The notes: generated by a model not told the origin, from the sequence alone. Counted from the stretch's first letter, positions 5,660 through 18,854 are shown. The stretch is 32,000 bases of DNA from Patulibacter defluvii (GCF_034096925.1 NZ_JAWZSQ010000003.1:197532-229531), one strand, 5' to 3'. A program made the numbers and translations.

Positions 5660-6037
5660 GGAGGCGTTCCCTTCGTCCTGTTGCAGAAGCCGGGCAGGCT
5701 AGATGAAGGACCGCTTTCGTGTCCGAGAGAAACGCCATTGTCCGACCCGCGTCGAACCGCGTACGTCGTCCGCGTTGACCGTGGCGAGTTCCCCTGCGGA
5801 ACGGGGGTCGAAACGTTTTCGCCAGTGTCCGCCGTGCGCCGCCGTGCGTTGGGCCGTCCGCGCGACGGTCACCGCGGGGGCGCTTCGGAAACGTCGTCGG
5901 ACATCCGTCCAGAGGCTGGGGCGGGCCAGCCCGCCGATCCCGAGCACGTGCTCGATGCCGGCGGTCCTGCCAGGGTGGAGGGGCGGCCGGCCTGGCGTAG
6001 GGTCGGTCCCGTCCGTCGCCTCACCCGGGAGCTGCTC

Positions 6038-7084
6038 ATGACCGACCTCTGGACCGCCGTCAAGGACCTGCCGATCACGATCGAGTCGTCGTCGTTCGAG
6101 GCGTTGGTGCCGAGCGGCCCCCTGGGGATGGAGGACTACACGACGACCCAGCTGCGGCTGCGGGGTCGTGGTGAGGAGGGGATCGGTGAGCAGGTCGGGA
6201 TGCCGGGTACGCAGGAGAGCCTGCGTGCCAGTGATCATTCGCTGACGGGGGAGTGGTCGACGCTGGCGGGGTTCCTGGACCATCTCGACACGATCGAGAT
6301 GTGGCCGGAGGCGCCGGAGTACGAGTTGGAGCGGAACTGGCGGCGCTGGACGTTCGAGTCGGCCGCGCTCGACCTCGCGTTGCGGCAGGCGGGGACGAGC
6401 CTGCCGGAGGTGCTGGGCCGGACGCCGCGGCCGTTGACCTTCGTCAACTCGTTCGGTCTCGGCGATCCGCCCGAGATCGACAAGGTCGCCAAGCGGCGGG
6501 CGGCGCAGCCGACGGTCGGCTTCAAGCTCGACGTCGCGCCCTCGTGGACGCAGGAGATCATGGACCGCGTGGCCGCCGTCGAGGGCGTCGCCACGATCGA
6601 CTTCAAGGGCCAGTACGGGATCGAGGTCGAGGACGAGGCGGCGCTGCTGGCGATGTACGAGCGGACGCTGGCCACCTTCACCGAGGCGGTCTTCGAGGAC
6701 CCGCACGACGACCCGGCGATCCTCGAGCTGCTGGCGCCGTTCGCCGACCGGGTCTCCTACGACGCGCCGATCACCACCGTCGAGTCGATCGCCGCCACCG
6801 CGATCGAGCCCCGGATCGTCAACGTCAAGCCCTGCCGCGTCGGGCGGCTGGCGGAGCTCAGCCGGCTCTACGCCCACTGCGGGGCGACCGGCATCCGGAT
6901 GTACAACGGCGGCATGGGCGAGCTGGGCGTCGGTCGCGGCCAGGCCCAGCTGCTGGCCGCGCTCTTTCACCCCGACGCACCGAACGACATCGCACCCTCG
7001 GACTACAACCTCGAGCAGCCCCCGCCCGGCCTCCCGCCGAGCCCGCTCGATCCGGCGCCCGACCGCGGCTTCCGACGCCGCTGA
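6038..7084 (+). CDS. Enolase-superfamily-like (MR/MLE-type barrel) protein, function unknown
   Basis: This is the 348-aa tail of the 1792-aa track ORF, and only this part reads like protein. Barrel-strand-like motifs are GFKLDV, IDFKGQY, VFEDP, VSYDAP and VNVKPCRVGRL. GGGAG lies 6 nt upstream of ATG 6038. Confidence 0.5.
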   Translation: MTDLWTAVKDLPITIESSSFEALVPSGPLGMEDYTTTQLRLRGRGEEGIGEQVGMPGTQESLRASDHSLTGEWSTLAGFLDHLDTIEMWPEAPEYELERNWRRWTFESAALDLALRQAGTSLPEVLGRTPRPLTFVNSFGLGDPPEIDKVAKRRAAQPTVGFKLDVAPSWTQEIMDRVAAVEGVATIDFKGQYGIEVEDEAALLAMYERTLATFTEAVFEDPHDDPAILELLAPFADRVSYDAPITTVESIAATAIEPRIVNVKPCRVGRLAELSRLYAHCGATGIRMYNGGMGELGVGRGQAQLLAALFHPDAPNDIAPSDYNLEQPPPGLPPSPLDPAPDRGFRRR

Positions 7085-7087
7085 GGG

Positions 7088-7450
7088 CTACTCCCCGAGC
7101 ATCGGCCGCGGATCGAAGGTGACCCGGACGGCCGTGATCAGGCCGTCCTCGACGTGGGTCCAGTTGGCGACCTGCATCGGCGGCTTGCCGGCGATCGTCA
7201 GCGCCGACCAGGTGACGACGTCGCGGTCGTCGGCCAGCCGCAGCAGCACGTCGTTGGCGGTGGTGGCGGCGAACATGCCGGCCAGTCCTCGCAGGAACTC
7301 GTCGGGGCCGCGGGTCGCGCCGAGGACGCCGTCGAAGGTGACGTCGGGAGCGAGCAGCGGGCGCAGCGGCTCGGGGTCGCCGGCCGCCCAGCAGGCGAAG
7401 TAGCGCTCGGCGATCGCGCGCGGGTCGGTCGGGCGGTCGGTGGACGTCAT
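7088..7450 (-). CDS. SnoaL-like / NTF2-fold small protein
   Basis: The internal ATG at codon 126 of track ORF 7088..7825 gives 120 aa: MTSTDRPTDPRAIAERYFACWAAGDPEPLRPLLAPDVTFDG.... The YFxCWxxGD...L..LLAPDV..D pattern is typical of SnoaL/ketosteroid-isomerase-like proteins. The upstream 125 codons are Arg/Ser-rich junk. Confidence 0.6.
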   Translation of the reverse strand: MTSTDRPTDPRAIAERYFACWAAGDPEPLRPLLAPDVTFDGVLGATRGPDEFLRGLAGMFAATTANDVLLRLADDRDVVTWSALTIAGKPPMQVANWTHVEDGLITAVRVTFDPRPMLGE

Positions 7451-7520
7451 GGGTCGATGTTCGAGCGCCCGGTTCCAGAAGTCCAATACCTGGTTCGGAT
7501 CGAATATAGAATTCTCAGTT
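7451..7520. promoter_or_regulatory. Divergent promoter region between the SnoaL-like gene and the LysR gene
   Basis: It is one of the most AT-rich segments of the window (GAATATAGAATTCTCAGTT). TAGAAT (7507-7512) fits TANNNT and lies 8 nt before ATG 7521. A short inverted repeat TTCGgatCGAA lies at about 7493-7503. No binding site is proven. Confidence 0.3.
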
Positions 7521-8393
7521 ATGGAACTGCAGCAGCTGCGGTACCTCGCCGAGGTCCGGCGGCGGGGCTCGTTCACCGCCGCCGCCGAGGCGCTGCACGT
7601 CAGCCAGCCGGGGGTCTCGGCCCAGGTCGCCAAGCTCGAGCGCGAGCTGGGCGTGCGGCTGTTCGACCGCGGCGCGCGGGTGGCGACGCTGACGCCCGAG
7701 GGCCAGGCGCTGCTGCCGCACGCGACGGCCGCGCTCGACGCGGTCGGGCGGATCCGGACGGTCGCCGACGACCTCGCCGGCGTCACCCGCGGCCAGGTCC
7801 GGATCGGGACCGTGATCGGCTGCACGATCCCGGGCTACCTGCGCGCGTTCGCCGGCTTCCGCAAGGCCCATCCCGGCGTCGCGGTGACGGCGAGCGAGGG
7901 CAACTCCGACGACCTGATCGCCGCTCTCGCCGCCGGCGATCTCGACGTCGCCCTGGTCGCGCACGCGGTCCCGCTGCCGGCCGACTTCGACGTCGTCACC
8001 GTCGTCGACGAGCCGCTCGCCGCCGCCGTGCCGCGGACGCACCCGTGGGCCGGGCGGATCGCGGTGCCCCCCGCCGCCCTGGCCGAGCAGGACGTCCTGA
8101 CCCTGCCGCCCGGAACCGGCGTCCGCGCCGCGCTGGCGACCACCTGCGCCGCCGCCGGCGTCGACCTCGTCCCGGCGGTCCAGGTCCACTCGCCCGAGGC
8201 GGCCCTGGCCCTGGCCGCCGAGGGCGCTGGCGTCGCGGTGCTCTCGCCGTCGATGATCGCCGCCCCGCTGGTCGCCGTCGCGATCGAGGGGGCCGCGCGG
8301 ACCGCGCTCTCGCTGGCCACCCGCGCCGAGCCCGGTGCCGCCGCGCGGGCGTTCGCGGCGGCGCTGCGGGGCGGGTTGACGGCTGGCCGGTAG
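7521..8393 (+). CDS. LysR-family transcriptional regulator
   Basis: MELQQLRYLAEVRRRGSFTAAAEALHVSQPGVSAQVAKLERELGVRLFDR is a canonical LysR winged-HTH. A substrate-binding domain follows. The gene is divergent from a small target-type gene. Confidence 0.9.
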   Translation: MELQQLRYLAEVRRRGSFTAAAEALHVSQPGVSAQVAKLERELGVRLFDRGARVATLTPEGQALLPHATAALDAVGRIRTVADDLAGVTRGQVRIGTVIGCTIPGYLRAFAGFRKAHPGVAVTASEGNSDDLIAALAAGDLDVALVAHAVPLPADFDVVTVVDEPLAAAVPRTHPWAGRIAVPPAALAEQDVLTLPPGTGVRAALATTCAAAGVDLVPAVQVHSPEAALALAAEGAGVAVLSPSMIAAPLVAVAIEGAARTALSLATRAEPGAAARAFAAALRGGLTAGR

Positions 8394-8519: not shown

Positions 8520-9260
8520 GTGGGAGCACGGCTGCGAGACGGAGCGACGGCGGTCGCGGCGACGCTGATGATCAGCGCGGCGGCGGGCTGCGGGAGCGAC
8601 GAGCCGACGGCGGCGACGTCCCGGATCCCGCCGACGGCGAAGGTCCTGATCACGGGCCCGGACGGGAGCGGCATGGCGATCTGGCACCCGCGGACGTTCG
8701 CGGACGCGGTGGCGGGCAGCGACGTCGTGGCGGTCGCGACCGTCCGCAGCGTCCGCGAGGGATCCCAGATCGAGGGCTCCCCGAGCCCGCCGAGCGAGGA
8801 GCTGCCGCCGCCGCTGTCGGCGTTGGCGGTCCAGATCGACGTCGAGCGGGTCATCAACCGCAGCGGCTGGGCCCGCGAGCTGCCCTCGGCGCCGACGCTC
8901 TACCTGCTCGATCCCGACGAGGACGCGCCGCTGGGCGTGACCGCCGGTCACCGCTACGTCTTCTTCCTCGCCGAGTTCGACCAGGTGGTCGAGGGGAACG
9001 ACCGGGCGTACCACACGGCTTGGGCAGGCGCCTACGTGGGTGTCGACGGCGACCGGCTCGAGCAGCTGCCGGAGCACGAGCCGGGAACGACCCTGGCGCC
9101 CACCGGCTCGATCGACGACCTCACCGCCACCGCCCAGCAGGTCAGCGTCGACCGCGAGCTCGCCACCGCCGACGTCAGCGCCTCTCCCAACCCGATGCTG
9201 ACCAACCGGCCGCGCTGGCGCGAGCGCTCCGGCTACCGCCCCCAGGACGACGACCGATGA
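8520..9260 (+). CDS. Putative lipoprotein, function unknown
   Basis: GTG start with GAGGAGG upstream. The signal plus lipobox-like sequence is ATLMISAAAGCGSDEP. G/C at codon position 3 is high. The stop overlaps the next gene's start (ATGA at 9257-9260). Confidence 0.65.
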   Translation: MGARLRDGATAVAATLMISAAAGCGSDEPTAATSRIPPTAKVLITGPDGSGMAIWHPRTFADAVAGSDVVAVATVRSVREGSQIEGSPSPPSEELPPPLSALAVQIDVERVINRSGWARELPSAPTLYLLDPDEDAPLGVTAGHRYVFFLAEFDQVVEGNDRAYHTAWAGAYVGVDGDRLEQLPEHEPGTTLAPTGSIDDLTATAQQVSVDRELATADVSASPNPMLTNRPRWRERSGYRPQDDDR

Positions 9261-9820
9261 CTCGCGCGCGCCGCGCCGCCGGGCGGACCCTCGTCCTCCT
9301 GCTGGCGGCGATCGGGCTCCAGCCGTCCGCGGCCCACGGTCACATCGCGTACGTCACCGACGACGACTGCTGCGTCCGCTTCCAGCACCAGGACCACGAC
9401 CGCGACTTCACGCTCTGGAACCAGATCGACAACGCCTCCTGGAAGGCCGGCGCCCGCCGCGCCCAGCTGCACCTGCACGACATCTACGACGGCTCGCTGC
9501 GGTTCCCGACCGCCGGCTCCTCGGGCAGCGCCGACATCGTGCTCGTCGATGCTCCCTACCCCCTGCCGTTCGTCGGACGCGCCTACCACTGGCGCCACCA
9601 CGGTGGCCAGGGTCGCCTGCAGATGAACACCAACTACGGCCTGACCGAGAACCAGGCCAAGGCCGTCGTCTGCCACGAGCTGAGCCACTTCACCGGCCTC
9701 GCCCACAGCAGCAACGCCTCCGACTGCATGATCGACGACCTCGCCTACCTGGCCAGCACCAACCTCGCGGTCTCGCACCGCGACCAGAACCGCGCCGAAT
9801 GGAACGCCTCGGGCCACTAG
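9257..9820 (+). CDS. Small secreted metzincin (matrixin-like) zinc metalloprotease
   Basis: This is the last 187 codons of track ORF 7154..9820. The signal peptide is MTRARRAAGRTLVLLLAAIGLQPSAAHG. It carries SADIVLV, then the HExxHxxGxxH(S) motif as CHELSHFTGLAHS, and a Met shortly after (SDCMID) that could be a Met-turn. Confidence 0.7.
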   Translation: MTRARRAAGRTLVLLLAAIGLQPSAAHGHIAYVTDDDCCVRFQHQDHDRDFTLWNQIDNASWKAGARRAQLHLHDIYDGSLRFPTAGSSGSADIVLVDAPYPLPFVGRAYHWRHHGGQGRLQMNTNYGLTENQAKAVVCHELSHFTGLAHSSNASDCMIDDLAYLASTNLAVSHRDQNRAEWNASGH

Positions 9821-9842
9821 TCGCGAGCACCGGCCCAGCACC

Positions 9843-9908
9843 TATCGCCCGCGTATCGGGAACCGCATACGCGCCGGCAGCAGGCCGCGGTCTTGACTGG
9901 CCGCATGA
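9843..9908 (+). promoter_or_regulatory. van promoter/operator module, copy A (includes the vanH start codon)
   Basis: TATCGCCcgcGTATCGggAACCGCaTACGcGCcGGC-N14-TTGACTGGcCGCATGA. By hand alignment, 48 of 66 positions match copy B at 13917-13982, with identical spacing to the ATG. The module contains TATCG twice, 11 bp apart, and an inverted repeat GCGTAT-N10-ATACGC. Confidence 0.6.
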
Positions 9909-10942
9909 TCCGCAGCGATCCGGCCCGAACCGCGGCACGCCCCCGACCGCCGGCGCCCTGGGCCGCGCCGGCCACCGCCGCGACCCGGATCACGGTCTAC
10001 GGGTGCGAGCAGGACGAGGCCGCGCTCTTCCGGGCCCTGGCGCCCGGCTTCGACGTCGACGCGACCATCACCGCGGCGCCCGTCTCGGTGGCCAACGTCG
10101 CGCTGGCGGCGGGGAACCGCTGCGTCAGCGTCGGGCACAAGGCCGAGGTCACGGCGGCGACGCTGCGCGCGCTGGCCGACGTGGGCGTGACCTACCTCTC
10201 CACACGGAGCGTCGGCTGCGACCACATCGATGCGGAATGCGCGCGGGACGTCGGCATCAGCGTCGGAACCGTCGCCTATTCGCCCGACAGCGTCGCGGAC
10301 TACACGCTGATGCTGATGCTGATGGCCGTCCGGCACGCGAAGGCGATCGTCCGCCGGGCCGACGTCCACGACTACCGCCTGCACGACCAGCGCGGTCGCG
10401 AGCTGCGCGACCTGACCGTCGGCGTGATCGGCACCGGTCGCATCGGCAGCGCGGTGATCGACCGGCTGCGGGGCTTCGGCTGCCGGGTCCTGGCCCACGA
10501 CCGCCGTCCGGGCGCCGCCGTCGACCACGTGCCGCTCGACGAGCTGCTGCGGCGCAGCGACGTCGTCACCCTCCACACGCCCCTGACCACCGAGACCCAC
10601 CACCTGCTCGACCAGGCCCGGATCGCGCGGATGAAGCCGGGCGCCGTCGTCGTCAACACCGGACGCGGCGCGCTCGTCGACAGCGCGGCGCTGGTCGCGG
10701 CGCTGGAGAGCGGCCGGCTGGGCGGCGCCGCGCTCGACGTCGTGGAGGGCGAGCAGGGGATCTTCTACGCCGACCGCCGCGACCGGCCGATCGAACCCGG
10801 CCCGCTGCGGCGGCTGCAGGAGCTGCCGAACGTGCTCGTCAGCCCGCACACCGCCTACTACACCGACCACGCGCTGCGCGACATGGTCGAGCACACGATC
10901 GCCAACTGCCTGGCGTTCGCCGGGGTGATCGAGCATGCGTAG
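9905..10942 (+). CDS. vanH: D-lactate dehydrogenase (pyruvate reductase), VanH
   Basis: ITVYGCEQDEAALF, VAYSPDSVADYTLMLMLMAVR, VGVIGTGRIGSAVIDRLRGFGC, GGAALDVVEGE and SPHTAYYTDHALRDMV read almost colinearly with enterococcal VanH as I remember it. ATG 9905 is preferred over the track's TTG 9893 because that TTG belongs to the conserved TTGACTGG DNA block. There is no other in-frame start before ITVYGC. Confidence 0.9.
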   Translation: MIRSDPARTAARPRPPAPWAAPATAATRITVYGCEQDEAALFRALAPGFDVDATITAAPVSVANVALAAGNRCVSVGHKAEVTAATLRALADVGVTYLSTRSVGCDHIDAECARDVGISVGTVAYSPDSVADYTLMLMLMAVRHAKAIVRRADVHDYRLHDQRGRELRDLTVGVIGTGRIGSAVIDRLRGFGCRVLAHDRRPGAAVDHVPLDELLRRSDVVTLHTPLTTETHHLLDQARIARMKPGAVVVNTGRGALVDSAALVAALESGRLGGAALDVVEGEQGIFYADRRDRPIEPGPLRRLQELPNVLVSPHTAYYTDHALRDMVEHTIANCLAFAGVIEHA

Positions 10943-11981
10943 GTCGAGGCTCGCGGTCGTCTTCGGCGGCAGTGGCGAGGAGCACCCGATCTCCGTCAAG
11001 TCCGCGCGCGAGGTCGCCAAGCACCTCGACCCCGACAAGTACGAGACGGTCTTCGTCGGGATCACCCGCGCCGGGGCCTGGCGGCTCTGCGACGGTCCCG
11101 ACGGCGACTGGGAGCGGCGCAGCACCCGCGCCGCCGTCCTCTCCCCGGACCGCAGCCGCCCCGGGCTGCTGGTGCTGGACGGCGATCGCCACGAGACCGT
11201 CCCCCTCGACCTGGTGCTGCCGGTGCTGCACGGCAAGTTCGGCGAGGACGGCGCGATCCAGGGGCTGCTGGAGCTGTCGGGCATCCCCTACGCCGGCTGC
11301 GACGTGCCCAGCTCCGCGCTCTGCATCGACAAGGCCCTGGCCTACGTCGTGGCGGGGAGCGCCGGAATCGCGACGCCGCGCTTCTGGACCGTCGCGCCCG
11401 GTGAGGAGATCGACGCGGAGCGGTTGCGCTTCCCGGTCTTCGTCAAGCCGGCGCGCTCGGGCTCGTCGTTCGGCGTCACCAAGGTCTCCGCTCCCGGCGA
11501 GCTGGAGGACGCGGTCCGCGACGCGCGCCAGTACGACGCCAAGCTCGTGATCGAGGAGGCGGTCGTCGGCAACGAGGTCGGCTGCGCGATCCACGGCAAC
11601 GGCGCCGACCTCTTCGCCGGCGAGGTCGACCAGATCGCGCTCTCCGGCGGCTTCTTCCGGATCCACCAGGAGCAGGCGCCCGAGCAGGGCTCCGACAACG
11701 CGACGGTCAACGTCCCGGCCGACATCTCCGCCGAGGCCCGATCGCGGGTGCAGGAGACGGCCAAGGCGATCTACCGCGCCCTCGGCTGCCGCGGGCTCGC
11801 GCGGGTCGACATGTTCCTGACCGCGGACGGGACGGTCGTGCTCAACGAGGTCAACACCTTCCCCGGGATGACCTCGTACAGCCGCTACCCGCGGATGATG
11901 GCCGCGGCCGGGCTCTCCTTCGCCGAGGTCCTCGACCGGATCGTGGCGTCGACGCTGGAGGGCCACGACGGTGACCGCTGA
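10935..11981 (+). CDS. vanA: D-alanine--D-lactate ligase (VanA/VanB type)
   Basis: LAVVFGGSGEEHPISVKSA is typical of the Ddl family. The C-terminal block FFRIHQEQAPEQGSDNATVNVPADISAEARSRVQETAKAIYRALGCRGLARVDMFL...LNEVNTFPGMTSYSRYPRMMAAAG closely follows the VanA sequence (..FRIHQE..EKGSENA..), not housekeeping Ddl. It overlaps vanH by 8 nt. Confidence 0.92.
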   Translation: MRRSRLAVVFGGSGEEHPISVKSAREVAKHLDPDKYETVFVGITRAGAWRLCDGPDGDWERRSTRAAVLSPDRSRPGLLVLDGDRHETVPLDLVLPVLHGKFGEDGAIQGLLELSGIPYAGCDVPSSALCIDKALAYVVAGSAGIATPRFWTVAPGEEIDAERLRFPVFVKPARSGSSFGVTKVSAPGELEDAVRDARQYDAKLVIEEAVVGNEVGCAIHGNGADLFAGEVDQIALSGGFFRIHQEQAPEQGSDNATVNVPADISAEARSRVQETAKAIYRALGCRGLARVDMFLTADGTVVLNEVNTFPGMTSYSRYPRMMAAAGLSFAEVLDRIVASTLEGHDGDR

Positions 11982-12597
11982 GTTCGCCTTCGTCGACGAC
12001 GTCGTCGCGGGCGTCCGCTGGGACGCCAAGTACGCCACCTGGGACAACTTCACCGGCAAGCCGGTCGACGGCTACGAGGTCAACCGGATCGTCGGCGCGC
12101 GGGCGCTCTGCGACGCGCTCGCCGTCGCCCGCGACGAGGCCGCCGTGCGCGGGTTCGGCCTGCTGCTGTGGGACGGCTACCGGCCCCAGCGCGCCGTCGA
12201 GTGCTTCCTGCGCTGGTTCGAGCAGCCGGAGAACGGGCGCACGAAGCAGCGCCACTACCCGAACATCGACCGCCGCGAGATGGTCGACCGCGGCTACGTC
12301 GCTCCCCGCTCGGGGCACAGCCGCGGCAGCAGCGTCGACCTGACGCTCTTCGACCTGGCGACCGGCGAGCTGGTGCCGATGGGCGGCGGCCACGACCTGA
12401 TGGACCCGATCTCCCACCACGACGCGCCCGGCGTGAGCGCGGTCGAGGCCGCCAACCGCCGGCAGCTGCGGGCGCTGATGGAGGCCTCGGGCTTCCGCGC
12501 CTACGCCTGCGAGTGGTGGCACTACGCGCTGCGGACCGAGCCCTACCCCGCCACCTACTTCGACTTCCCGATCAGCCATGCGCTTCTCGGCCGCTGA
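11971..12597 (+). CDS. vanX: D-Ala-D-Ala dipeptidase, VanX
   Basis: DAKYATWDNFTGKPVDGY, LLLWDGYRPQRAV, SGHSRGSSVDLTL (Zn ligands) and EWWHY are VanX hallmarks. The GTG start overlaps the ligase gene by 11 nt. Confidence 0.92.
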   Translation: MTAEFAFVDDVVAGVRWDAKYATWDNFTGKPVDGYEVNRIVGARALCDALAVARDEAAVRGFGLLLWDGYRPQRAVECFLRWFEQPENGRTKQRHYPNIDRREMVDRGYVAPRSGHSRGSSVDLTLFDLATGELVPMGGGHDLMDPISHHDAPGVSAVEAANRRQLRALMEASGFRAYACEWWHYALRTEPYPATYFDFPISHALLGR

Positions 12598-13906
12598 GCT
12601 GGCGGACCACCTGGGCGCCGAGCTGGTCGGCCCCGACGTCGCCGTCGAGGGCGCCAGCATCGACACGCGGACGCTCCGGCCCGGGCAGCTCTACGCGCCG
12701 ATCGTGGCGGCGCGCGACGGCCACGACTTCCTGCCGGCGGCGCTCGCGGCGGGCGCCGCGGCCTACCTGACCGCGCGCGAGCCGGTCGGCGGGACCGCCA
12801 TCCGCGTGCCCGACACCGCCGCCGCGCTGCTGCGGCTGGGGGCGCTCGGACGCGACAGGATCGCCGGCGCGATCGGCATCACCGGCTCGGTCGGCAAGAC
12901 CACCACCAAGGACCTGCTGGCCGGCTGCCTGGCGTCGACCTTCCCGACCGCGGCCAGCGAGCGGTCGTTCAACAACGAGCTGGGCCTGCCGCTGACGCTG
13001 CTCGGCGCGCCCGAGGCGACCCGCTGGGTGGTGCTGGAGATGGGCGTCCGGCGCGAGGGCGACATCGACCGGCTGTGCCAGGTGGCCCGGCCCGAGGTCG
13101 GCGTCGTGACCGCCGTCGACCTGGCCCACGTCGAGTTCCTGGGCGACCTCGACGGCGTCGCTCGGGCCAAGGGCGAGCTGGTCGCCGGGCTGCCGCCCTC
13201 GGGGCTGGCCGTCCTCAACGTCGACGACCCGCGGGTGCGGGCGATGGCCTCGCGCAGCGCCGCCCGCGTGCTGGGCTACGGCACCGGTCCCGAAGCCCAG
13301 GTCCGGGCCGACGACGTCGCGCTCGACGACGAGCTGCGCGCCCGCTTCCGGCTCTCGTCGCCGTGGGGCCGGACGGAGGTCCGGCTGGGGCTGCGCGGCG
13401 CCCACCAGGTGACCAACGCGCTGGCCGCGGCGGCGGTCGCGCTCTGGGCCGGGGTCCCGATCGAGGCGGTCGCCGCGGCGCTGGCCGAGGGGCGGGCGTC
13501 GCCGTGGCGGATGGAGGTCCACCACGTGCCCGCCGGCCCGCTGCTGGTGGTCGACTGCTTCAACGCGATCCCGGCGTCGGCCGAGGCGGCGGTGCGCTCG
13601 CTGGCGGCGCTGCCGGGCGAGCGCAGGCTGGCGCTGCTCGGACTGATGGCCGAGCTGGGGGAGCGGAGCGCGACCGAGCACCGCCGGATCGCCGCCGTGG
13701 CCGAGCGGCTCGGGGTCCAGGTGGTCGGCTACGAGACCGACCTCTACGGCGAGGCGCACGTGACCGGCGTCGACGATGCCGTCGCGCTGCTGCGGACGCT
13801 GGGTCCGCGCGACGCGGCGCTGGTGAAGGGCAGCCGGGTGGCGCGGCTCGAGGACGTGGTCCACGCCTACGGCCGGGCCCGGGGCGTGCCGTCGCTGGCG
13901 GGGTAG
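12578..13906 (+). CDS. murF: UDP-MurNAc-tripeptide--D-alanyl-D-alanine (D-Ala-D-Lac) ligase, MurF paralogue
   Basis: SIDTRTLRPGQLY, the P-loop ITGSVGKTTTKDL, NNELGLPLTL and MEV are Mur-ligase/MurF signatures. It overlaps vanX by 20 nt. Confidence 0.9.
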   Translation: MRFSAAELADHLGAELVGPDVAVEGASIDTRTLRPGQLYAPIVAARDGHDFLPAALAAGAAAYLTAREPVGGTAIRVPDTAAALLRLGALGRDRIAGAIGITGSVGKTTTKDLLAGCLASTFPTAASERSFNNELGLPLTLLGAPEATRWVVLEMGVRREGDIDRLCQVARPEVGVVTAVDLAHVEFLGDLDGVARAKGELVAGLPPSGLAVLNVDDPRVRAMASRSAARVLGYGTGPEAQVRADDVALDDELRARFRLSSPWGRTEVRLGLRGAHQVTNALAAAAVALWAGVPIEAVAAALAEGRASPWRMEVHHVPAGPLLVVDCFNAIPASAEAAVRSLAALPGERRLALLGLMAELGERSATEHRRIAAVAERLGVQVVGYETDLYGEAHVTGVDDAVALLRTLGPRDAALVKGSRVARLEDVVHAYGRARGVPSLAG

Positions 13907-13916
13907 GCGGCGGGGG

Positions 13917-13982
13917 TATCGCCGACGTATCGCAAACCGCGTACGTGCTGGCGACACCGCTCCCCGTTGACTGGTCGCATGA
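13917..13982 (+). promoter_or_regulatory. van promoter/operator module, copy B (includes the start codon of the PhyH-like gene)
   Basis: TATCGCCgacGTATCGcaAACCGCgTACGtGCtGGC-N14-TTGACTGGtCGCATGA. It has the same block order and the same 62-nt distance from TATCGCC to the ATG as copy A. It begins 11 nt after the murF stop. Confidence 0.6.
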
Positions 13983-14773
13983 GCTACAGCAACGCAGCGA
14001 CGGAGCCGCTGGCGAAGACCGTGGCGGAGGAGGGCTGGGCCGTGGTCGGGACGCTCGACCGCCCGCTCTCCCGCCGGCTGCTGGGGGCGGTCGACGAGGT
14101 GGCGGCACGGTCTCCCGAGGCCGGGGCCGGGGGCCAGCTCCACCTGCTCTCGGGCCTGGCCCAGCACCCGCGGCTGGCGGCGGTCGTCGACTGGCCGCCG
14201 CTGCTGGCGCTCGCGGTCGAGCTGCTCTCGCCCAACATCTACATCAACCACTCGCACCTGGACGTCCACCCGCCGCACCCGCCGACCGGCGCCCACCGCT
14301 GGCACCGCGACAACGGCCTGATGGGGCGCGACATGCGGCTGCTCTGGCGCGACCAGCCGCGGGTGACGCTGAAGGTCGCGATCTACCTGACCGACGTCGA
14401 GTCGGCGGACGACGGCGCGCTCGAGGTGGTCCCGCGCAGCCACCTCGACGCGGAGTCGCGGTACCCGACCGAGGAGCAGCCCGACGGCGTGCCGATCCTC
14501 GGGCCGGCGGGCACGGTCGCCGTCTTCGACGCCCGGCTCTGGCACCGCCGGCGGGACAACCTCGGCGCCCGCACCCGGCGGGCGATGTTCTGGGGCTACA
14601 GCTACCGCTGGATGACCTCGCGCGACACGCCGTTCGCCGACGTGCCGGCGTGGGCCACGCAGCCGCCGGTCCGCCGCCAGCTGCTCGGCGACCCGACGGT
14701 CGACCCGTTCTACTGGGCGGCCGGCGAGCTGGCGCTCGATCCGCGAGCCGGTGCGTTCCAGGAGGCGGCGTGA
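13979..14773 (+). CDS. PhyH-family Fe(II)/2-oxoglutarate-dependent dioxygenase, substrate unknown
   Basis: WHRD (HxD), LKVAIYLTDVESADDGALEVVPRSH and the distal His in FDARLWHRR match phytanoyl-CoA-dioxygenase-type signatures. ATG 13979 is preferred over TTG 13967 for the same reason as vanH. The stop overlaps the vanY ATG by 1 nt. Confidence 0.8.
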   Translation: MSYSNAATEPLAKTVAEEGWAVVGTLDRPLSRRLLGAVDEVAARSPEAGAGGQLHLLSGLAQHPRLAAVVDWPPLLALAVELLSPNIYINHSHLDVHPPHPPTGAHRWHRDNGLMGRDMRLLWRDQPRVTLKVAIYLTDVESADDGALEVVPRSHLDAESRYPTEEQPDGVPILGPAGTVAVFDARLWHRRRDNLGARTRRAMFWGYSYRWMTSRDTPFADVPAWATQPPVRRQLLGDPTVDPFYWAAGELALDPRAGAFQEAA

Positions 14774-15423
14774 TGCGGGCCGACCAGCTGACGGGGATGG
14801 GCACGATCCACCGCGCCCCGATCCGGATCCGCAAGCGGCGCGTGGCCGCCCTGCTCGTCGTCCTGGGGGCGATCGTGGTGGCGATCAGCGGCCGCTCGCC
14901 GGGACCGTCGGCGTCGATGGTCGACGCGGTCGGCGGCGAGCACCGCGGCAGCGGCTGGCGCGGCGAGCTGGGCGTGGCCGCCGGGGCCGTGCCCGACGGC
15001 ACGACGGTCTTCGACGGCGGCGTCCCGGGCGTCGCCAAGCTCGACCCGGCGCTGCTCGACGCGGTTCGTCGGGCCGCGTCGCAGGCGGCGAACGAGGGGA
15101 TCGCGTTCGTCGTCGACAGCGGCTGGCGCTCGCGGGCGTACCAGCAGCGGCTGCTCGACGAGGCGGTCGCGAAGTACGGCTCGCAGGCCGAGGCGTCGCG
15201 CTGGGTGGCCACGCCCGGCACCTCGGCCCACGTCTCCGGTCAGGCGATCGACATCGGTCCCGCGGGCGCCGCCGCCTGGCTGGCCCGGCACGGCTCCGCC
15301 TACGGCCTCTGCCGGATCTACGGCAACGAGCCCTGGCACTACGAGCTGCGGCCCGACGCGGTCGCCTCCGGCTGCCCGCCGGTCTACGCCGACCCGACGC
15401 AGGATCCGCGGATGCGGCAGTGA
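14773..15423 (+). CDS. vanY: Membrane-anchored D,D-carboxypeptidase, VanY (peptidase M15B)
   Basis: This is the last 216 codons of track ORF 13075..15423. The N-terminal anchor is RKRRVAALLVVLGAIVVAI. The M15 Zn motifs are SAHVSGQAIDI (SxHxxGxAxD) and EPWHYE. Confidence 0.85.
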   Translation: MRADQLTGMGTIHRAPIRIRKRRVAALLVVLGAIVVAISGRSPGPSASMVDAVGGEHRGSGWRGELGVAAGAVPDGTTVFDGGVPGVAKLDPALLDAVRRAASQAANEGIAFVVDSGWRSRAYQQRLLDEAVAKYGSQAEASRWVATPGTSAHVSGQAIDIGPAGAAAWLARHGSAYGLCRIYGNEPWHYELRPDAVASGCPPVYADPTQDPRMRQ

Positions 15424-15459
15424 CGGCCGTCGACCGGTGGGCCGGTTCGACGTCCGGTT

Positions 15460-16212
15460 TCAGGAGGAGGGTGCCGCCGATGCGTTCTCGGCGTCGAGCG
15501 CCGCACGCAGGCGGCGGTCGGCACGCTCCATGTGGGCGCGCATCGCGGCCCGGGCGGCGTCCGGATCGGCGCCGGCGATCGCGTCGACGATCGGCTCGTG
15601 CATGTCGAACGACGACGCCGTCTCGCCGGCGTGCTCGAGCACCCGCTTGGCCCAGACACCGAGCAGCGAGCGGAGACTGGTCACGAGGCTGATGAAGGTC
15701 TCGTTCTCCGTCGCGGCGGCGATCTCCAGGTGCAGCGCGACGTCCGCCTCGACGTAGCGATCGACGTCGTCGCCCGCCTGCCGGAGCGCGTCCAGGGCCT
15801 TGCGGAGCCGGGCGGTCGTCTCCTCCGTGGCGCGCTCGGCGGCGAGTCCCGCGACCAGCACCTCGATCTCGGCGCGCGCCTCGACCAGGTCGAAGATCCG
15901 CCGCTGCCCGAGCAACAGGCCCCATTCGATCACCTGCGGCAGCAGATCCGAGCCGGACTGCGACAGGTAGGTCCCGTCCCCCTGACGCACGTCGAGCAGG
16001 CCGAGCAGGCTGAGCGACTTGATCGCCTCGCGGACCTGTGAGCGGCCGACGCCCAGCGCCTCGGCCAGCTGCCGCTCCGGCGGGATCTTCGAGCCCGGGG
16101 AGACCTCGCCCGACAGCAGGTAGTCCAGCAGCGTCCGCGTGATCTCCGTCACCGGCGGCCGGCGGGGGGCGATGCGGAGGCTCTGGGGGAGGGCGCTTGA
16201 CTCGTTGTGCAT
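15460..16212 (-). CDS. GntR-family transcriptional regulator, FadR subfamily (FCD domain)
   Basis: The winged HTH is KIPPERQLAEALGVGRSQVREAIKSLSLLGLLDVRQGDGTYL. An all-helical C-terminal domain with conserved His/Asp (HLEIAAAT...MHEPIVDAI) follows. Confidence 0.9.
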   Translation of the reverse strand: MHNESSALPQSLRIAPRRPPVTEITRTLLDYLLSGEVSPGSKIPPERQLAEALGVGRSQVREAIKSLSLLGLLDVRQGDGTYLSQSGSDLLPQVIEWGLLLGQRRIFDLVEARAEIEVLVAGLAAERATEETTARLRKALDALRQAGDDVDRYVEADVALHLEIAAATENETFISLVTSLRSLLGVWAKRVLEHAGETASSFDMHEPIVDAIAGADPDAARAAMRAHMERADRRLRAALDAENASAAPSS

Positions 16213-16227
16213 GAAGATGGCGGATCA

Positions 16228-16243
16228 GGTCGACCGGTCGACC
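16228..16243. promoter_or_regulatory. Operator palindrome 1 (putative GntR site, in front of gntR)
   Basis: GGTCGACCGGTCGACC is a perfect 16-bp palindrome that ends 15 nt from the gntR start codon. It contains GT-N2-AC units, consistent with the generic GntR-family operator form. Confidence 0.6.
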
Positions 16244-16281
16244 AAGCCTAGAGCACCGTCCCGAAGGATGGCTCCCAAATT

Positions 16282-16297
16282 GGTTGACCGGTCGACC
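16282..16297. promoter_or_regulatory. Operator palindrome 2 (overlaps the -35 of the aminotransferase promoter)
   Basis: GGTTGACCGGTCGACC is self-complementary at all but one symmetric base pair. It is identical to the site at 25640-25655. Confidence 0.6.
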
Positions 16298-16318
16298 TCA
16301 AACGGTTACGCTCGGCCC
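16284..16318 (+). promoter_or_regulatory. Sigma-70-type promoter predicted to give a leaderless mRNA starting at ATG 16319
   Basis: TTGACC (16284-16289), N17, TACGCT (16307-16312), N6, ATG (16319). There is no Shine-Dalgarno sequence. Confidence 0.45.
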
Positions 16319-17632
16319 ATGGCCCAGTCCTCCAACCCCTTGGCGCTGCTGGGCGGGACCCCCGCGCACCGCCTGCCGAACCCCAAGTACCCGCGCCTCG
16401 GCGCCGACCTCCACGTCCGGATCGCGGACGCGCTCGACCGCGGGCCGATGCAGGGCCTCAGCAAGGGCCACCCGATCATCGAGGAGCTGGAGACGCGGCT
16501 CGCCGCGTACCACGGCGTCGACCAGGTGCTCGCCTCCAGCTCGGGCCACGGGGCGCTCCAGTCCGCCCTGATCGGGCTCGAGGTCACCGGCGGCGACGAG
16601 GTGCTCACCTCGCCCTACTCCTGGGGGGCCTCGGTCTCCTGCATCCTGCACAACGGCGCGGTGCCGGTCTTCGTCGACATCGACCGCGACAACGGGCTGC
16701 TGGACCCGGCCCGGCTCGCCGACGGACTGACGCCGCGGACCCGGGCGATCCTCGTGCCCCACCTCTACGGGCAGCCGGCGGACATGACCGCGATCATGCG
16801 GTTCGCCGAGGATCACGACCTGCTGGTGATCGAGGACGGCAGCCAGGCGCACGGCGCGCGTCACCGCGGCACCCGGGTCGGCGCCTTCGGTCACGCCGGC
16901 GGGTTCTCCACCAACGGGGTCAAGCCGCTCGCCACCACCGAGGGCGGGTACATGGTCACCCGCGTTGCCGACGTCTACTGGAAGGCGACCATCAGCGGTC
17001 AGCACGCCGGCCGCGGAGAGCTGCTGGGGCGGGCCAGCGAGCCCGGCTTCCCCGACGAGCTGCGGCCTCTGGTCGACTCGCTGATCTACTCCTACCGCCC
17101 GAACGTGGTCTCGGCGCTGATGGCGCTGGACCGGCTCCCGCACCTGGAAGAGGAGAACGCCGCGCGGCGCTGGAACGCGGCGCGGCTCTTCGAGGGACTG
17201 CGCGACGTCGAGGCGCTCAGCTGGCCGACGGTCGACGAGGCCGACGAGTGCGTCTTCCACATGGTGACCCTGAACTTCGACGCCGAGCTGGCGGGCGTCG
17301 AGCGCGACGCGTTCGTCGCCGCGCTCGCCGTCGAGGGCGTGCCGGCGGTCCCGTACGTGGCCAAGGGCCTGCATCGCTCGGAGCGGCTGAGCCCGAGCTA
17401 CGGCGGCCCGCGGGTGATGTGGACGGAAACGATCCGCCGGTCGGGCATCGACCCGACCGCCGTCGAGCTGCCGGGCTGCGACGCCAAGGTCGCCCGCTCG
17501 ATCGAGATCCCGTGGAACTACTTCGAGCGCGACCCCGACCTGATCGACAGCCTGGTCGGCGCCTTCCGGAAGGTCCAGGCGGAGCTGCCCGCGCTGCGAC
17601 GGCACGCCGATCGGCACCAGGCGACGGTCTAG
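16319..17632 (+). CDS. DegT/DnrJ/EryC1/StrS-family PLP-dependent (sugar/cyclitol) aminotransferase
   Basis: The internal ATG at codon 61 of track ORF 16139..17632 is used. Family-typical features are LALLGG.P, SSSGHGALQSALIGL, TSPYSWGASV, DIDRDNGLLD, IEDGSQAHGA and a probable PLP Lys in FSTNGVKPL. Confidence 0.85.
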   Translation: MAQSSNPLALLGGTPAHRLPNPKYPRLGADLHVRIADALDRGPMQGLSKGHPIIEELETRLAAYHGVDQVLASSSGHGALQSALIGLEVTGGDEVLTSPYSWGASVSCILHNGAVPVFVDIDRDNGLLDPARLADGLTPRTRAILVPHLYGQPADMTAIMRFAEDHDLLVIEDGSQAHGARHRGTRVGAFGHAGGFSTNGVKPLATTEGGYMVTRVADVYWKATISGQHAGRGELLGRASEPGFPDELRPLVDSLIYSYRPNVVSALMALDRLPHLEEENAARRWNAARLFEGLRDVEALSWPTVDEADECVFHMVTLNFDAELAGVERDAFVAALAVEGVPAVPYVAKGLHRSERLSPSYGGPRVMWTETIRRSGIDPTAVELPGCDAKVARSIEIPWNYFERDPDLIDSLVGAFRKVQAELPALRRHADRHQATV

Positions 17633-17669
17633 CGCCGGACGCTCCGTCCCGCGATCGATCTGGAGAACC

Positions 17670-18854
17670 GTGTCGACCTCGATGGCCACCGTCGCCTACG
17701 ACCCGTTCGCGTACGCGATGCACGATGACCCGTACCCGACCTACGCGCTGCTGCGGGACCACTTCCCGGTCTACCGCAACGAGGAGCGCGGCTTCTGGGC
17801 GCTCTCGCGCTTCGACGACGTGCGGGCGGCCGCGCGCGACTGGCGCAGCTTCTCGAGCCATCCTGGCGTCGATCTCGACGGCACCGGGCAGGAGTACGGG
17901 CCGGGCAACTTCATCGACCTCGACCCGCCCCGCCACGACGCGCTGCGCAAGGTCCTGCGCCACGCGTTCGTCCCCAAGCAGGTCGCCGGCTACGAGCCGG
18001 CGGCACGGGCGGCGGTCGCCGAGATCGCCCGCACGCTGGAGGGGCGGAGCACCGTCGACCTGGCCGACCAGGTCGCCTGGACGCTGCCGGTGACGATGAT
18101 CTGCGAGCTGCTCGGGGTGCCTCGCGACGACCGCGCCGCGCTGCGCTCGTGGCTCGACCGTTTCATGTTCCGGCACGACGGGGTCGACCGCCTGCCCGAG
18201 GACGCCGTCCACGCCCTGGGCGCGGCCGCCGGCTACTTCCGCGCCCTGATCGACGAGCGCCGGCGGACGCCCCGCGACGACGTCGCGACGACCCTGACCC
18301 GGGCCGAGGTCGATGGCGTCCCGCTGGCCGAGGACGAGATCGTCTCGATCTGCCTGCTGCTGCTCGCTGCCGGCGTCGAGACCGCGGCGGGCCTGATCGC
18401 GAGCGCGTTCCTGGTCCTCGCCGAGCATCCCGTCGCCCGCCGGCGCCTGCGGGCGACGCCCGACCTGATCCCGGCGGCGATCGAGGAGGTCCTGCGCCTG
18501 GAGTCCCCGATCCAGGGACTCGCGCGGACCGCGACCGTCGACGTCCCCGTCCACGATCAGGTGATCCCGGCCGGCGCCCGCGTGTTCCTGCTCTTCGGCG
18601 CCGCCAACCGCGACGGCCGCCGGTTCGACGATCCCAACGCGTTCGACCTCGACCGCGAGGCGCCGAAGAGCCTGGCCTTCGGCGAGGGGATCCACTTCTG
18701 CCTCGGCGCGCCGCTGGCCCGGCTGGAGGCGCGGGTCGTGCTCGAGCAGCTGCTGCCGCCGCTGGGCGACTACGTGGTCGACGGCCCGGTCGAGCGGCTG
18801 CACAGCCACACGACCCGGGCGGCGGTCTCGCTGCCGGTCGAGGTCGACGCGTGA
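17670..18854 (+). CDS. Cytochrome P450
   Basis: The heme-thiolate loop is FGEGIHFCLGAPLA, the ExxR motif is EEVLRLESP, and the I-helix is LLLAAGVETAAG. The GTG start is preceded by GGAGAA. ATG 17682 is an alternative start. Confidence 0.9.
   Translation: MSTSMATVAYDPFAYAMHDDPYPTYALLRDHFPVYRNEERGFWALSRFDDVRAAARDWRSFSSHPGVDLDGTGQEYGPGNFIDLDPPRHDALRKVLRHAFVPKQVAGYEPAARAAVAEIARTLEGRSTVDLADQVAWTLPVTMICELLGVPRDDRAALRSWLDRFMFRHDGVDRLPEDAVHALGAAAGYFRALIDERRRTPRDDVATTLTRAEVDGVPLAEDEIVSICLLLLAAGVETAAGLIASAFLVLAEHPVARRRLRATPDLIPAAIEEVLRLESPIQGLARTATVDVPVHDQVIPAGARVFLLFGAANRDGRRFDDPNAFDLDREAPKSLAFGEGIHFCLGAPLARLEARVVLEQLLPPLGDYVVDGPVERLHSHTTRAAVSLPVEVDA

Follow-up and report, generated by a model that had tools for sequence, protein, structure and literature searches.

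How a van operon is controlled when no sensor is encoded beside it is the question raised by a 32,000-nt stretch of the Patulibacter defluvii genome (GCF_034096925.1, NZ_JAWZSQ010000003.1:197532-229531, on contig C3; the whole stretch is referred to below as the window). At 9905-15423 of the window lies an island of six genes, all on the plus strand, whose products are, in order, VanH, a ligase of the D-Ala-D-Lac type, VanX, a paralogue of MurF, a dioxygenase of the PhyH family and a carboxypeptidase of the VanY type; no vanRS and no non-ribosomal peptide synthetase (NRPS) genes were found in the window. A sequence-only reading had treated the lack of a sensor as the oddity of the island. This oddity disappears at the scale of the genome, as a canonical vanRS is present on another contig (C20), both operons of the island keep a VanR-type promoter module, and 22 of 48 vanHAX loci with full flanks (at least 13 of the 22 being actinobacterial) are likewise without a close VanR within 10 kb. 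The island is likely to form the effector half of an actinobacterial VanRS regulon of the canonical kind, now physically split, with the C20 vanRS predicted to act in trans on conserved operator-promoter modules.

Gene families were assigned by profile searches (Pfam, NCBIfam and TIGR01143) against curated cut-offs, and the island was found to contain the following genes:

9905-10942, plus strand: vanH, putative D-lactate dehydrogenase, pyruvate to D-lactate (vanH_gen 504 bits, 2-Hacid_dh_C 179 bits)
10935-11981, plus strand: VanA-type D-Ala-D-Lac ligase (NF000206 559.8, cut-off 550)
11971-12597, plus strand: vanX, D-Ala-D-Ala dipeptidase (NF033115 374.7, cut-off 320; Peptidase_M15 202 bits)
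12578-13906, plus strand: murF paralogue (MurF2), UDP-MurNAc-tripeptide ligase (TIGR01143 335, cut-off 288.6)
13979-14773, plus strand: PhyH-family Fe(II)/2-oxoglutarate dioxygenase (PF05721 52.1 bits, cut-off 22)
14773-15423, plus strand: vanY, membrane-anchored D,D-carboxypeptidase (PF02557 53.4 bits, cut-off 25)

The G+C content of the window is 72-79%, so that raw lists of open reading frames are noisy; the six co-directional genes between 9.9 and 15.4 kb are all intact coding frames, with a G+C content at third codon positions (GC3) of 0.94-0.97. Together with the profile scores, these values bear out the six-gene D-Ala-D-Lac island proposed in the sequence-only reading, and the overlaps given there for the genes along the island (8, 11, 20 and 1 nt) are correct. 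The vanH score falls just short of the vanH_gen cut-off of 540 bits, all six top matches being VanH types and the generic D-lactate dehydrogenase model giving 203; the ATG at 9905 and the codons that follow it are kept in the closest public locus (L010, a Solirubrobacteraceae metagenome-assembled genome). The ligase reaches the NF000206 equivalog cut-off, with models for D-Ala-D-Ser and D-Ala-D-Ala ligases giving 380 bits or less. Its top named NCBIfam types are VanI (583 bits), VanO and VanA-Sc, and in comparisons with the PDB it matches the permafrost VanA 3SE7 at 521 bits, E. faecium VanA at 452 bits and Ddl enzymes at 230 bits or less, which upholds its placement with VanA and not with Ddl. 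The FFRIHQE...GSDNA block that had been described as VanA-like is present, and FFRIHQE matches FFKIHQE of 3SE7 column for column, its histidine (residue 244) aligning with VanA His244. This is the omega-loop histidine, which in VanA stands where Ddl has a tyrosine. By family score and the His244 equivalent, the ligase is a predicted D-Ala-D-Lac depsipeptide synthase. The vanX gene lies immediately 3' of the ligase gene, and the vanH-ligase and ligase-vanX overlaps of 8 and 11 nt point to translational coupling.

The genome also holds a housekeeping ddl (C1:14535-15503, 38% identity to the island ligase) and, next to murE among the clustered cell-division genes of C23, a housekeeping murF with 44% identity to MurF2; the island ligase and MurF2 are therefore true extra copies, and the MurF paralogue was rightly described as a dedicated one. 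Another Ddl-like frame, the third, is found at C1:46048-46818 and has 35% identity to the van ligase. MurF2 is presumed to add D-Ala-D-Lac, with a predicted preference for the depsipeptide. In a phylogenetic tree it forms a clade with the van-linked MurFs of the genus-mate G013 and of loci L010, L108 and L115 (support 100/100), and this Solirubrobacterales-type clade is separate from that of Streptomyces van-linked MurFs, which hints at a separate recruitment in a tree made without the housekeeping MurFs of other taxa. In the same tree MurF2 groups weakly, and on long branches, with the housekeeping MurF of its host (93/71), and the conclusion drawn on its origin is confined to its separation from the Streptomyces van-MurF clade. 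At the end of the island, the stop codon of phyH and the ATG of vanY share 1 nt; VanY has an N-terminal hydrophobic anchor and the metal-site motifs SAHVSGQAID (H-x6-D) and EPWHYE (E-x2-H). It scores below the named VanY types of NCBI (best 75.6 bits against 250). Its identity is 62-69% to VanYs encoded next to vanHAX in Kribbella, Amycolatopsis and Jiangella, and 70% to the equivalently placed VanY of G013.

Control of these genes is suggested by a promoter module of approximately 65 nt, with the layout TATCG-N6-TATCG-N9-TACG ... TTGACTGG-N4-ATG, that lies upstream of both vanH and phyH:

9843-9907, plus strand: vanH promoter/operator module (repeats 9843-9871, TTGACTGG 9893-9900, ATG 9905)
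13917-13981, plus strand: phyH-vanY promoter/operator module (repeats 13917-13945, TTGACTGG 13967-13974, ATG 13979)

The conserved block was exposed by aligning the region upstream of vanH with L010, where it recurs downstream of vanR. When TATCG-N6-TATCG-N9-TACG was searched for with zero mismatches, exactly four sites were found in the 5.3-Mb genome (window 9843, window 13917, C20:9610 and C4:21272). These four copies and the two of L010 align without gaps, TTGACTGG standing 21 nt past the repeats, and in all six a start codon (ATG or GTG) is found exactly 62 nt from the first T of the module. A weight matrix built solely from 76 module copies in other genomes gave four sites at 64-76 bits in the P. 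defluvii genome (66 bits for the vanH module and 69.7 bits for the phyH module) and nothing else at 20 bits or above; in three shuffled genomes, used as a control, no site reached 10 bits. In dozens of actinobacterial loci, too, the module is found upstream of vanH, murF, vanY and further van-linked genes, and it precedes phyH in G013, L010, L108, L114, L115, L119, L120 and L121. Since the 72-nt gap between murF and phyH contains the second module, the island is made up of two transcription units, vanH-ligase-vanX-murF2 and phyH-vanY. A van-core look-alike at 5741-5783 has AACCGCGTACGT in common with the phyH box; tried as a partial third copy, it was rejected as a site, being below 20 bits on the full matrix, without the first repeat and wrongly spaced.

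The modules also bear on where the genes begin. Translation of vanH most likely starts at ATG 9905 and not at TTG 9893, and that of phyH at ATG 13979 and not at TTG 13967, because both of these TTGs are the TTG inside the TTGACTGG element. The island had been given a start at 9843, which is the first base of the promoter box. In S. coelicolor the vanH, vanK and vanR transcripts have been found experimentally to be leaderless (PMC3160421 Table 1, citing Hong et al. 2004), and the vanK upstream sequence, printed as CCGCCGCCTTGACTGGGGGCATG, carries CCTTGACTGG-N4-ATG (PMC3160421). The core of the island module is identical to this leaderless vanK promoter core, and the transcripts of the island are, by this likeness, probably leaderless as well. 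Conservation of the module extends beyond the start codon (consensus ATG-aCC-TAC-AGC) ahead of unrelated genes, in the window (9905-9916 and 13979-13990) as in many other loci, and may reflect a constraint on those bases of a leaderless mRNA that are transcribed and translated first. No consensus sigma-70 promoters or intrinsic terminators were found across 9200-16300, and the van module differs from the canonical promoter of sigma-70.

The sensor pair was located by querying the genome with that of L010: vanS lies at C20:7788-8912 and vanR at approximately C20:8890-9585, both on the minus strand and, from contig geometry, at least 128 kb from the island. The C20 VanR and VanS are 90% and 70% identical to the cassette-linked pair of L010, and 90% and 84% identical to the pair of G013; in NCBIfam they come nearest to VanR-O (454 bits) and VanS-O (474 bits), the runner-up family scoring approximately 170 bits or less. 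The same VanR is 83-90% identical to VanRs found within 10 kb of vanHAX in approximately 35 loci of Streptomyces, Amycolatopsis, Kribbella, Jiangella and Agromyces. VanR-dependent induction of vanRSJKHAX has been documented in S. coelicolor (PMC7947799), and S. toyocaensis and A. balhimycina have already been described as carrying vanRS genes unlinked from vanHAX (PMC4790382, PMC5036315).

The two further modules of the genome lie on C20 and C4. At C20:7788-13909 (locus L090), vanS-vanR is divergent from the van box at 9610, which sits between vanR and the gene for a 191-aa lipoprotein; genes for a PG_binding_1 protein, an ATP-binding cassette (ABC) ATPase, a MacB/FtsX permease and a TetR protein follow. 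The same lipoprotein-PG_binding-MacB ABC module is found after vanY in L119 and beside sensor pairs in L109 (Acidimicrobiales), L112 and L113. The fourth van module, at C4:21272-22725 (locus L092, 6273-7726), stands ahead of the gene for a 463-aa protein, with an alpha/beta hydrolase gene next. This protein has a signal like those of twin-arginine translocation (Tat) substrates, tetratricopeptide (TPR) repeats and an aspartyl protease domain of the retropepsin-like kind (Asp_protease_2, 39.5 bits), and is not the product of a known van gene.

That the present layout may derive from a contiguous one is suggested by related loci. L010 has 77% DNA identity to the window over exactly 9839-14769, from vanH through phyH, and carries a response regulator and a histidine kinase divergently upstream of its cassette. 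Among 60 relatives the ligase and PhyH were found in one genus-mate only, G013, in which vanS-vanR is divergent from vanH-A-X-murF-phyH-vanY, the same six genes as in the island, ending at the equivalent vanY stop. The cassette is thus directly beside vanRS in three relatives (G013, L010 and L119), and in the genus-mates G001, G003, G007 and G010 vanRS adjoins vanY, the stretch examined in G003 and G007 also including lipoprotein and peptidoglycan-binding genes. In L119 (1-12710 of a 31-kb metagenome contig, JGI 3300014968) all van parts stand in a single row with four van boxes, in this order:

vanS/vanR, divergent
box, S11 carboxypeptidase
box, vanHAX-murF-LytR_C
box, phyH
box, vanY-lipoprotein-PG-binding-ABC ATPase-MacB permease, then TetR

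L119 is likely a picture of the unsplit arrangement. L119-like parts are present in P. defluvii in two pieces, of which the C3 window holds box-vanHAX-murF and box-phyH-vanY, and C20 holds vanSR, box-lipoprotein-PG_binding-ABC-MacB and TetR. No integrase or transposase genes were found in the window, and no meaningful repeats or mobility genes flank the island; a repeat search for insertion scars gave only high-GC noise and the similarity of the vanX and vanY active sites, and flanking repeats were rejected as candidates. Synteny with genus-mates (in the comparison with G001) is confined to the gene at 6038-7084, so that no empty site could be delimited there and the history of insertion or rearrangement is unreadable.

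If the C20 pair governs the island, the following course of events can be proposed. VanS, a membrane kinase, would sense the glycopeptide and phosphorylate VanR, and phosphorylated VanR would bind the TATCG-N6-TATCG-N9-TACG direct repeats at four self-contained, probably leaderless promoters. From the vanH promoter (9843), vanH-ligase-vanX-murF2 would be induced: VanH would supply D-lactate, the ligase would join it into D-Ala-D-Lac, VanX would remove D-Ala-D-Ala, and MurF2 would attach the depsipeptide to UDP-MurNAc-tripeptide. From the phyH promoter (13917), phyH-vanY would be expressed, VanY trimming residual D-Ala-ending stems on the outer side of the membrane and PhyH carrying out an Fe/2-oxoglutarate-dependent oxidation. 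The C20 promoter would drive the lipoprotein, the peptidoglycan-binding protein and the MacB-type ABC transporter adjoining vanRS, and the C4 promoter the Tat-exported TPR/aspartyl-protease protein. The predicted outcome is an inducible glycopeptide resistance. As each module holds its own operator and promoter, separation of the parts need not cost control.

Several observations weigh against this account. As of 2016 the exact binding site of actinobacterial VanR had not been determined (PMC5036315), and for this reason the repeats are taken as the VanR operator from their position, their repeat structure and their co-conservation with VanR. The C20 proteins fall under the NCBI cut-offs (VanR-O 454 against 505; VanS-O 474 against 720), and the -10-like hexamer, TTGACT, is without the usual A at position 2, which leaves the sigma factor uncertain. 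The operator part of the vanH box scores 40.9 against a typical 45-60, its A-rich spacer reading GGGAAC, and a second VanRS-like pair on C21 could interfere with C20 control. The low score of the vanH box has a bearing on the proposal that the island is expressed constitutively and independently of VanRS, as is vanHAX of A. balhimycina, which is likewise distant from its VanRS homologues (vnlRS) and has been reported to be constitutive and VnlR-independent (PMC5036315). Beyond that precedent, the below-average operator speaks for it. In the Amycolatopsis producer-type loci L029, L031, L051 and L053, however, the module lies approximately 50 nt 5' of vanH with both TATCG repeats mutated (TATTG ... 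GCATCG or GCCTCG) and operator scores of 25-32, as against 45-60 in other loci, which fits the published constitutive expression, whereas both repeats are intact in both window modules. As the deviation is in the A-rich spacer, VanRS control is favoured over constitutive expression, with a vanH box weaker than typical. The module is moreover retained at four places in the genome, and a host without NRPS has no need for constant self-protection; constitutive expression is thus unlikely.

Regulation by the C21 pair, alone or with the C20 pair, would also place a VanRS-type system in charge. This pair (C21:87100-89800, locus L091; the pair itself at 87.7-89.8 kb) is divergent from a VanY-like gene of its own and ranks second in the genome, after the C20 pair, in its likeness to VanR and VanS of L010 (61% and 42% identity; VanR-O 279 bits). 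Its intergenic region retains GCAACAC...TTGGCTGG but carries an inverted repeat of 13 nt in place of TATCG repeats, and it is the C20 pair, at 90% identity, that is orthologous to the cassette-linked pairs of G013, L010 and L119; we consider control from C21 very unlikely. The neighbouring LysR (7440-8393) and GntR (15460-16212, minus strand) were correctly named as the only regulators near the island inside the window, which is what commends them as its controllers. Neither travels with the cassette in L010, G013, L108, L115 or L119-L121, DNA homology to relatives begins at 9839 and stops at the phyH or vanY stop, and GntR is divergent from a DegT/P450 pair that it more plausibly serves, so that there is scarcely any likelihood of either being in control. 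A silent or decaying relic would agree with the patchy distribution (the ligase is found in 2 of 61 relatives searched, P. defluvii counted) and with surroundings that are not syntenic with genus-mates. The six intact frames, their GC3 of 0.94-0.97, the conserved catalytic motifs and the two intact promoter modules leave only a slender chance of this, and the patchy distribution shows only that the island is accessory. Least probable of all is self-resistance of a glycopeptide producer that has its biosynthetic cluster at some other place in the genome. MurF paralogues do accompany vanHAX in the sta and tei clusters (PMC4790382), but no NRPS condensation domain (PF00668) passes in the genome, which is 95.7% complete (best match 19.7 bits, cut-off 30.6), and the nearby P450 is a generic one. 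With no condensation domain above the cut-off, the host is a non-producer; the suggestion that the island is an environmental reservoir version of the van operon is supported, and the absence of glycopeptide NRPS genes from the surroundings extends to the genome.

VanRS control from C20 would extend to the gene of the PhyH-like dioxygenase. Neither PhyH nor a dioxygenase is mentioned in two broad surveys of van genes (PMC8698665, PMC9689679), and a text search of the literature gave no link between PhyH and van; this linkage is the newer point of the island. PhyH homologues of at least 70% identity are common in soil metagenomes, and in all 12 readable contexts they are VanRS-linked, whilst two homologues at 50-55% identity are not van-linked. 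The contexts are of three kinds:

phyH-vanHAX-murF: L108, L115, L120
vanHAX-murF-(LytR_C)-phyH: P. defluvii, L010, G013, L114, L119, L121
sensor pair and lipoprotein-PG_binding-MacB ABC-phyH, with no vanHAX nearby: L109 (Acidimicrobiales), L112, L113

The HxD...H triad and the 2-oxoglutarate-binding arginine (H109-x-D111, H189 and R200) are invariant across 33 homologues. An AlphaFold2 model with a mean predicted local distance difference test score (pLDDT) of 85.7 has a jelly-roll fold that matches other family members at template modelling (TM) scores of 0.72-0.76, its nearest neighbours being the fungal and bacterial natural-product tailoring oxygenases FtmOx1, AsqJ, SptF and TlxI, at TM approximately 0.72 and 18% identity; a sequence search of the PDB gave weak matches alone (E approximately 1e-3). 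The substrate was sought from both the sequence matches and the fold neighbours, and none emerged. No signal peptide is seen by eye. It is a speculation, and a rather doubtful one, that PhyH oxidises a peptidoglycan precursor or building block in the cytoplasm. A broader proposal is put forward tentatively, as somewhat less doubtful: in Thermoleophilia and Acidimicrobiia, PhyH may belong to the VanR regulon as a hitherto unnamed component that is functionally required, with such a cytoplasmic oxidation as its task, in a regulon that may consist of portable modules, each with its own VanR operator and leaderless promoter.

In the surroundings of the island, a DegT/DnrJ/EryC1-type aminotransferase and a cytochrome P450 (17670-18854) are encoded at 16139-18854 of the window, divergent from GntR and 0.7-2.2 kb downstream of vanY. 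The sequence-only reading had seen no NRPS, Oxy P450 or vanRS nearby, which stands for the NRPS and vanRS in the window and has to be qualified by this P450, 2.2 kb from vanY; its nearest solved structures are generic CYP107/125/130-type enzymes, with no Oxy among the best 60 matches, and the pair is not conserved with the cassette elsewhere. On the other side, 8520-9820 encodes a lipoprotein and a small matrixin-like (metzincin-like) metalloprotease (Peptidase_M10, 26 bits), which stop 22 nt short of the vanH box; 8622-9825 recurs at C19:25290-26504 as a paralogous copy of 77% DNA identity, and the lipoprotein/metalloprotease pair does not accompany the cassette in relatives. The remainder of the window encodes oxidoreductases, LysR, GntR, sugar-acid catabolic enzymes and a sugar ABC transporter.

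Comparison with known systems places the island close to the inducible VanB-like vanSRJKHAX cluster of the non-producer S. coelicolor, with which it has in common the vanHAX core and the identical CCTTGACTGG-N4-ATG core of vanK (PMC3160421) and, by prediction, control through VanRS, more than one separate promoter that depends on VanR, and leaderless transcription. The VanRs of Streptomyces loci of this type are approximately 85-89% identical to that of C20. Unlike in S. coelicolor, vanRS is here separated from the island by 128 kb or more, and the window shows neither vanJ nor vanK (the search for these did not go beyond it) but has the murF paralogue, the PhyH dioxygenase gene and vanY; the host, to judge from its nearest loci, is a Solirubrobacteraceae-like member of the Thermoleophilia. 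For Solirubrobacterales and Rubrobacterales, arrangements of the vanYRS or vanRSHAXY kind, some of them including murF, have been reported in a small share of species (Andreo-Vidal et al. 2021; PMC8698665); in P. defluvii both vanYRS (on C21) and vanHAX-murF-...-vanY are present, vanRS is separated from vanHAX, and the dioxygenase is one that the survey text does not have. In the sta (A47934) and tei cassettes a dedicated MurF adjoins vanHAX, as here, and the murX (sta) and murF2 (tei) that the sequence-only reading cited are confirmed by PMC4790382; vanRS of sta is also non-adjacent to vanHAX (PMC4790382). These cassettes are inside NRPS clusters, whereas P. defluvii has none, and the Streptomyces van-MurF clade is distinct. 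The A. balhimycina locus resembles the island in the distance of vanHAX from the VanRS homologues but differs in its repeats: in Amycolatopsis loci of this type they are degenerate and expression is VnlR-independent (PMC5036315), whereas here they are intact. The vanI cluster of Desulfitobacterium hafniense has the order vanX-murF-vanK-vanW-vanI-vanRS, with vanH elsewhere on the chromosome (PMC4229326). The likenesses are that VanI is the best named model for the ligase (583 bits), that murF is inside the cluster and that one core gene stands apart (there vanH), whereas the gene order is another, vanRS is linked and the host belongs to the Firmicutes.

Both murF-containing van loci of Solirubrobacterales and the separation of vanRS from vanHAX have been published before, and given these precedents and the 22 of 48 loci, the island is a further environmental example of a known system, which adds little on vanHAX itself; it is a variant in having the PhyH gene, additional modules of the regulon and a layout in two pieces. 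It does illustrate that a van operon without a nearby sensor can still be classified, as intact TATCG repeats predict VanRS control and degenerate repeats go with constitutive expression, a reading that would be useful in annotating environmental resistance reservoirs; the conserved 65-nt module would in addition serve as a cheap probe for whole VanR regulons in actinobacterial genomes. In this lineage the VanR regulon appears wider, with the dioxygenase, the lipoprotein/peptidoglycan-binding/MacB-ABC module and the secreted TPR-aspartyl protease as candidate accessory functions. If the proposal for PhyH were true, glycopeptide resistance would involve, besides the exchange for D-Ala-D-Lac, a further chemical step carried out by this enzyme, and portable modules would explain how the parts of the regulon can be scattered over the chromosome without loss of control.

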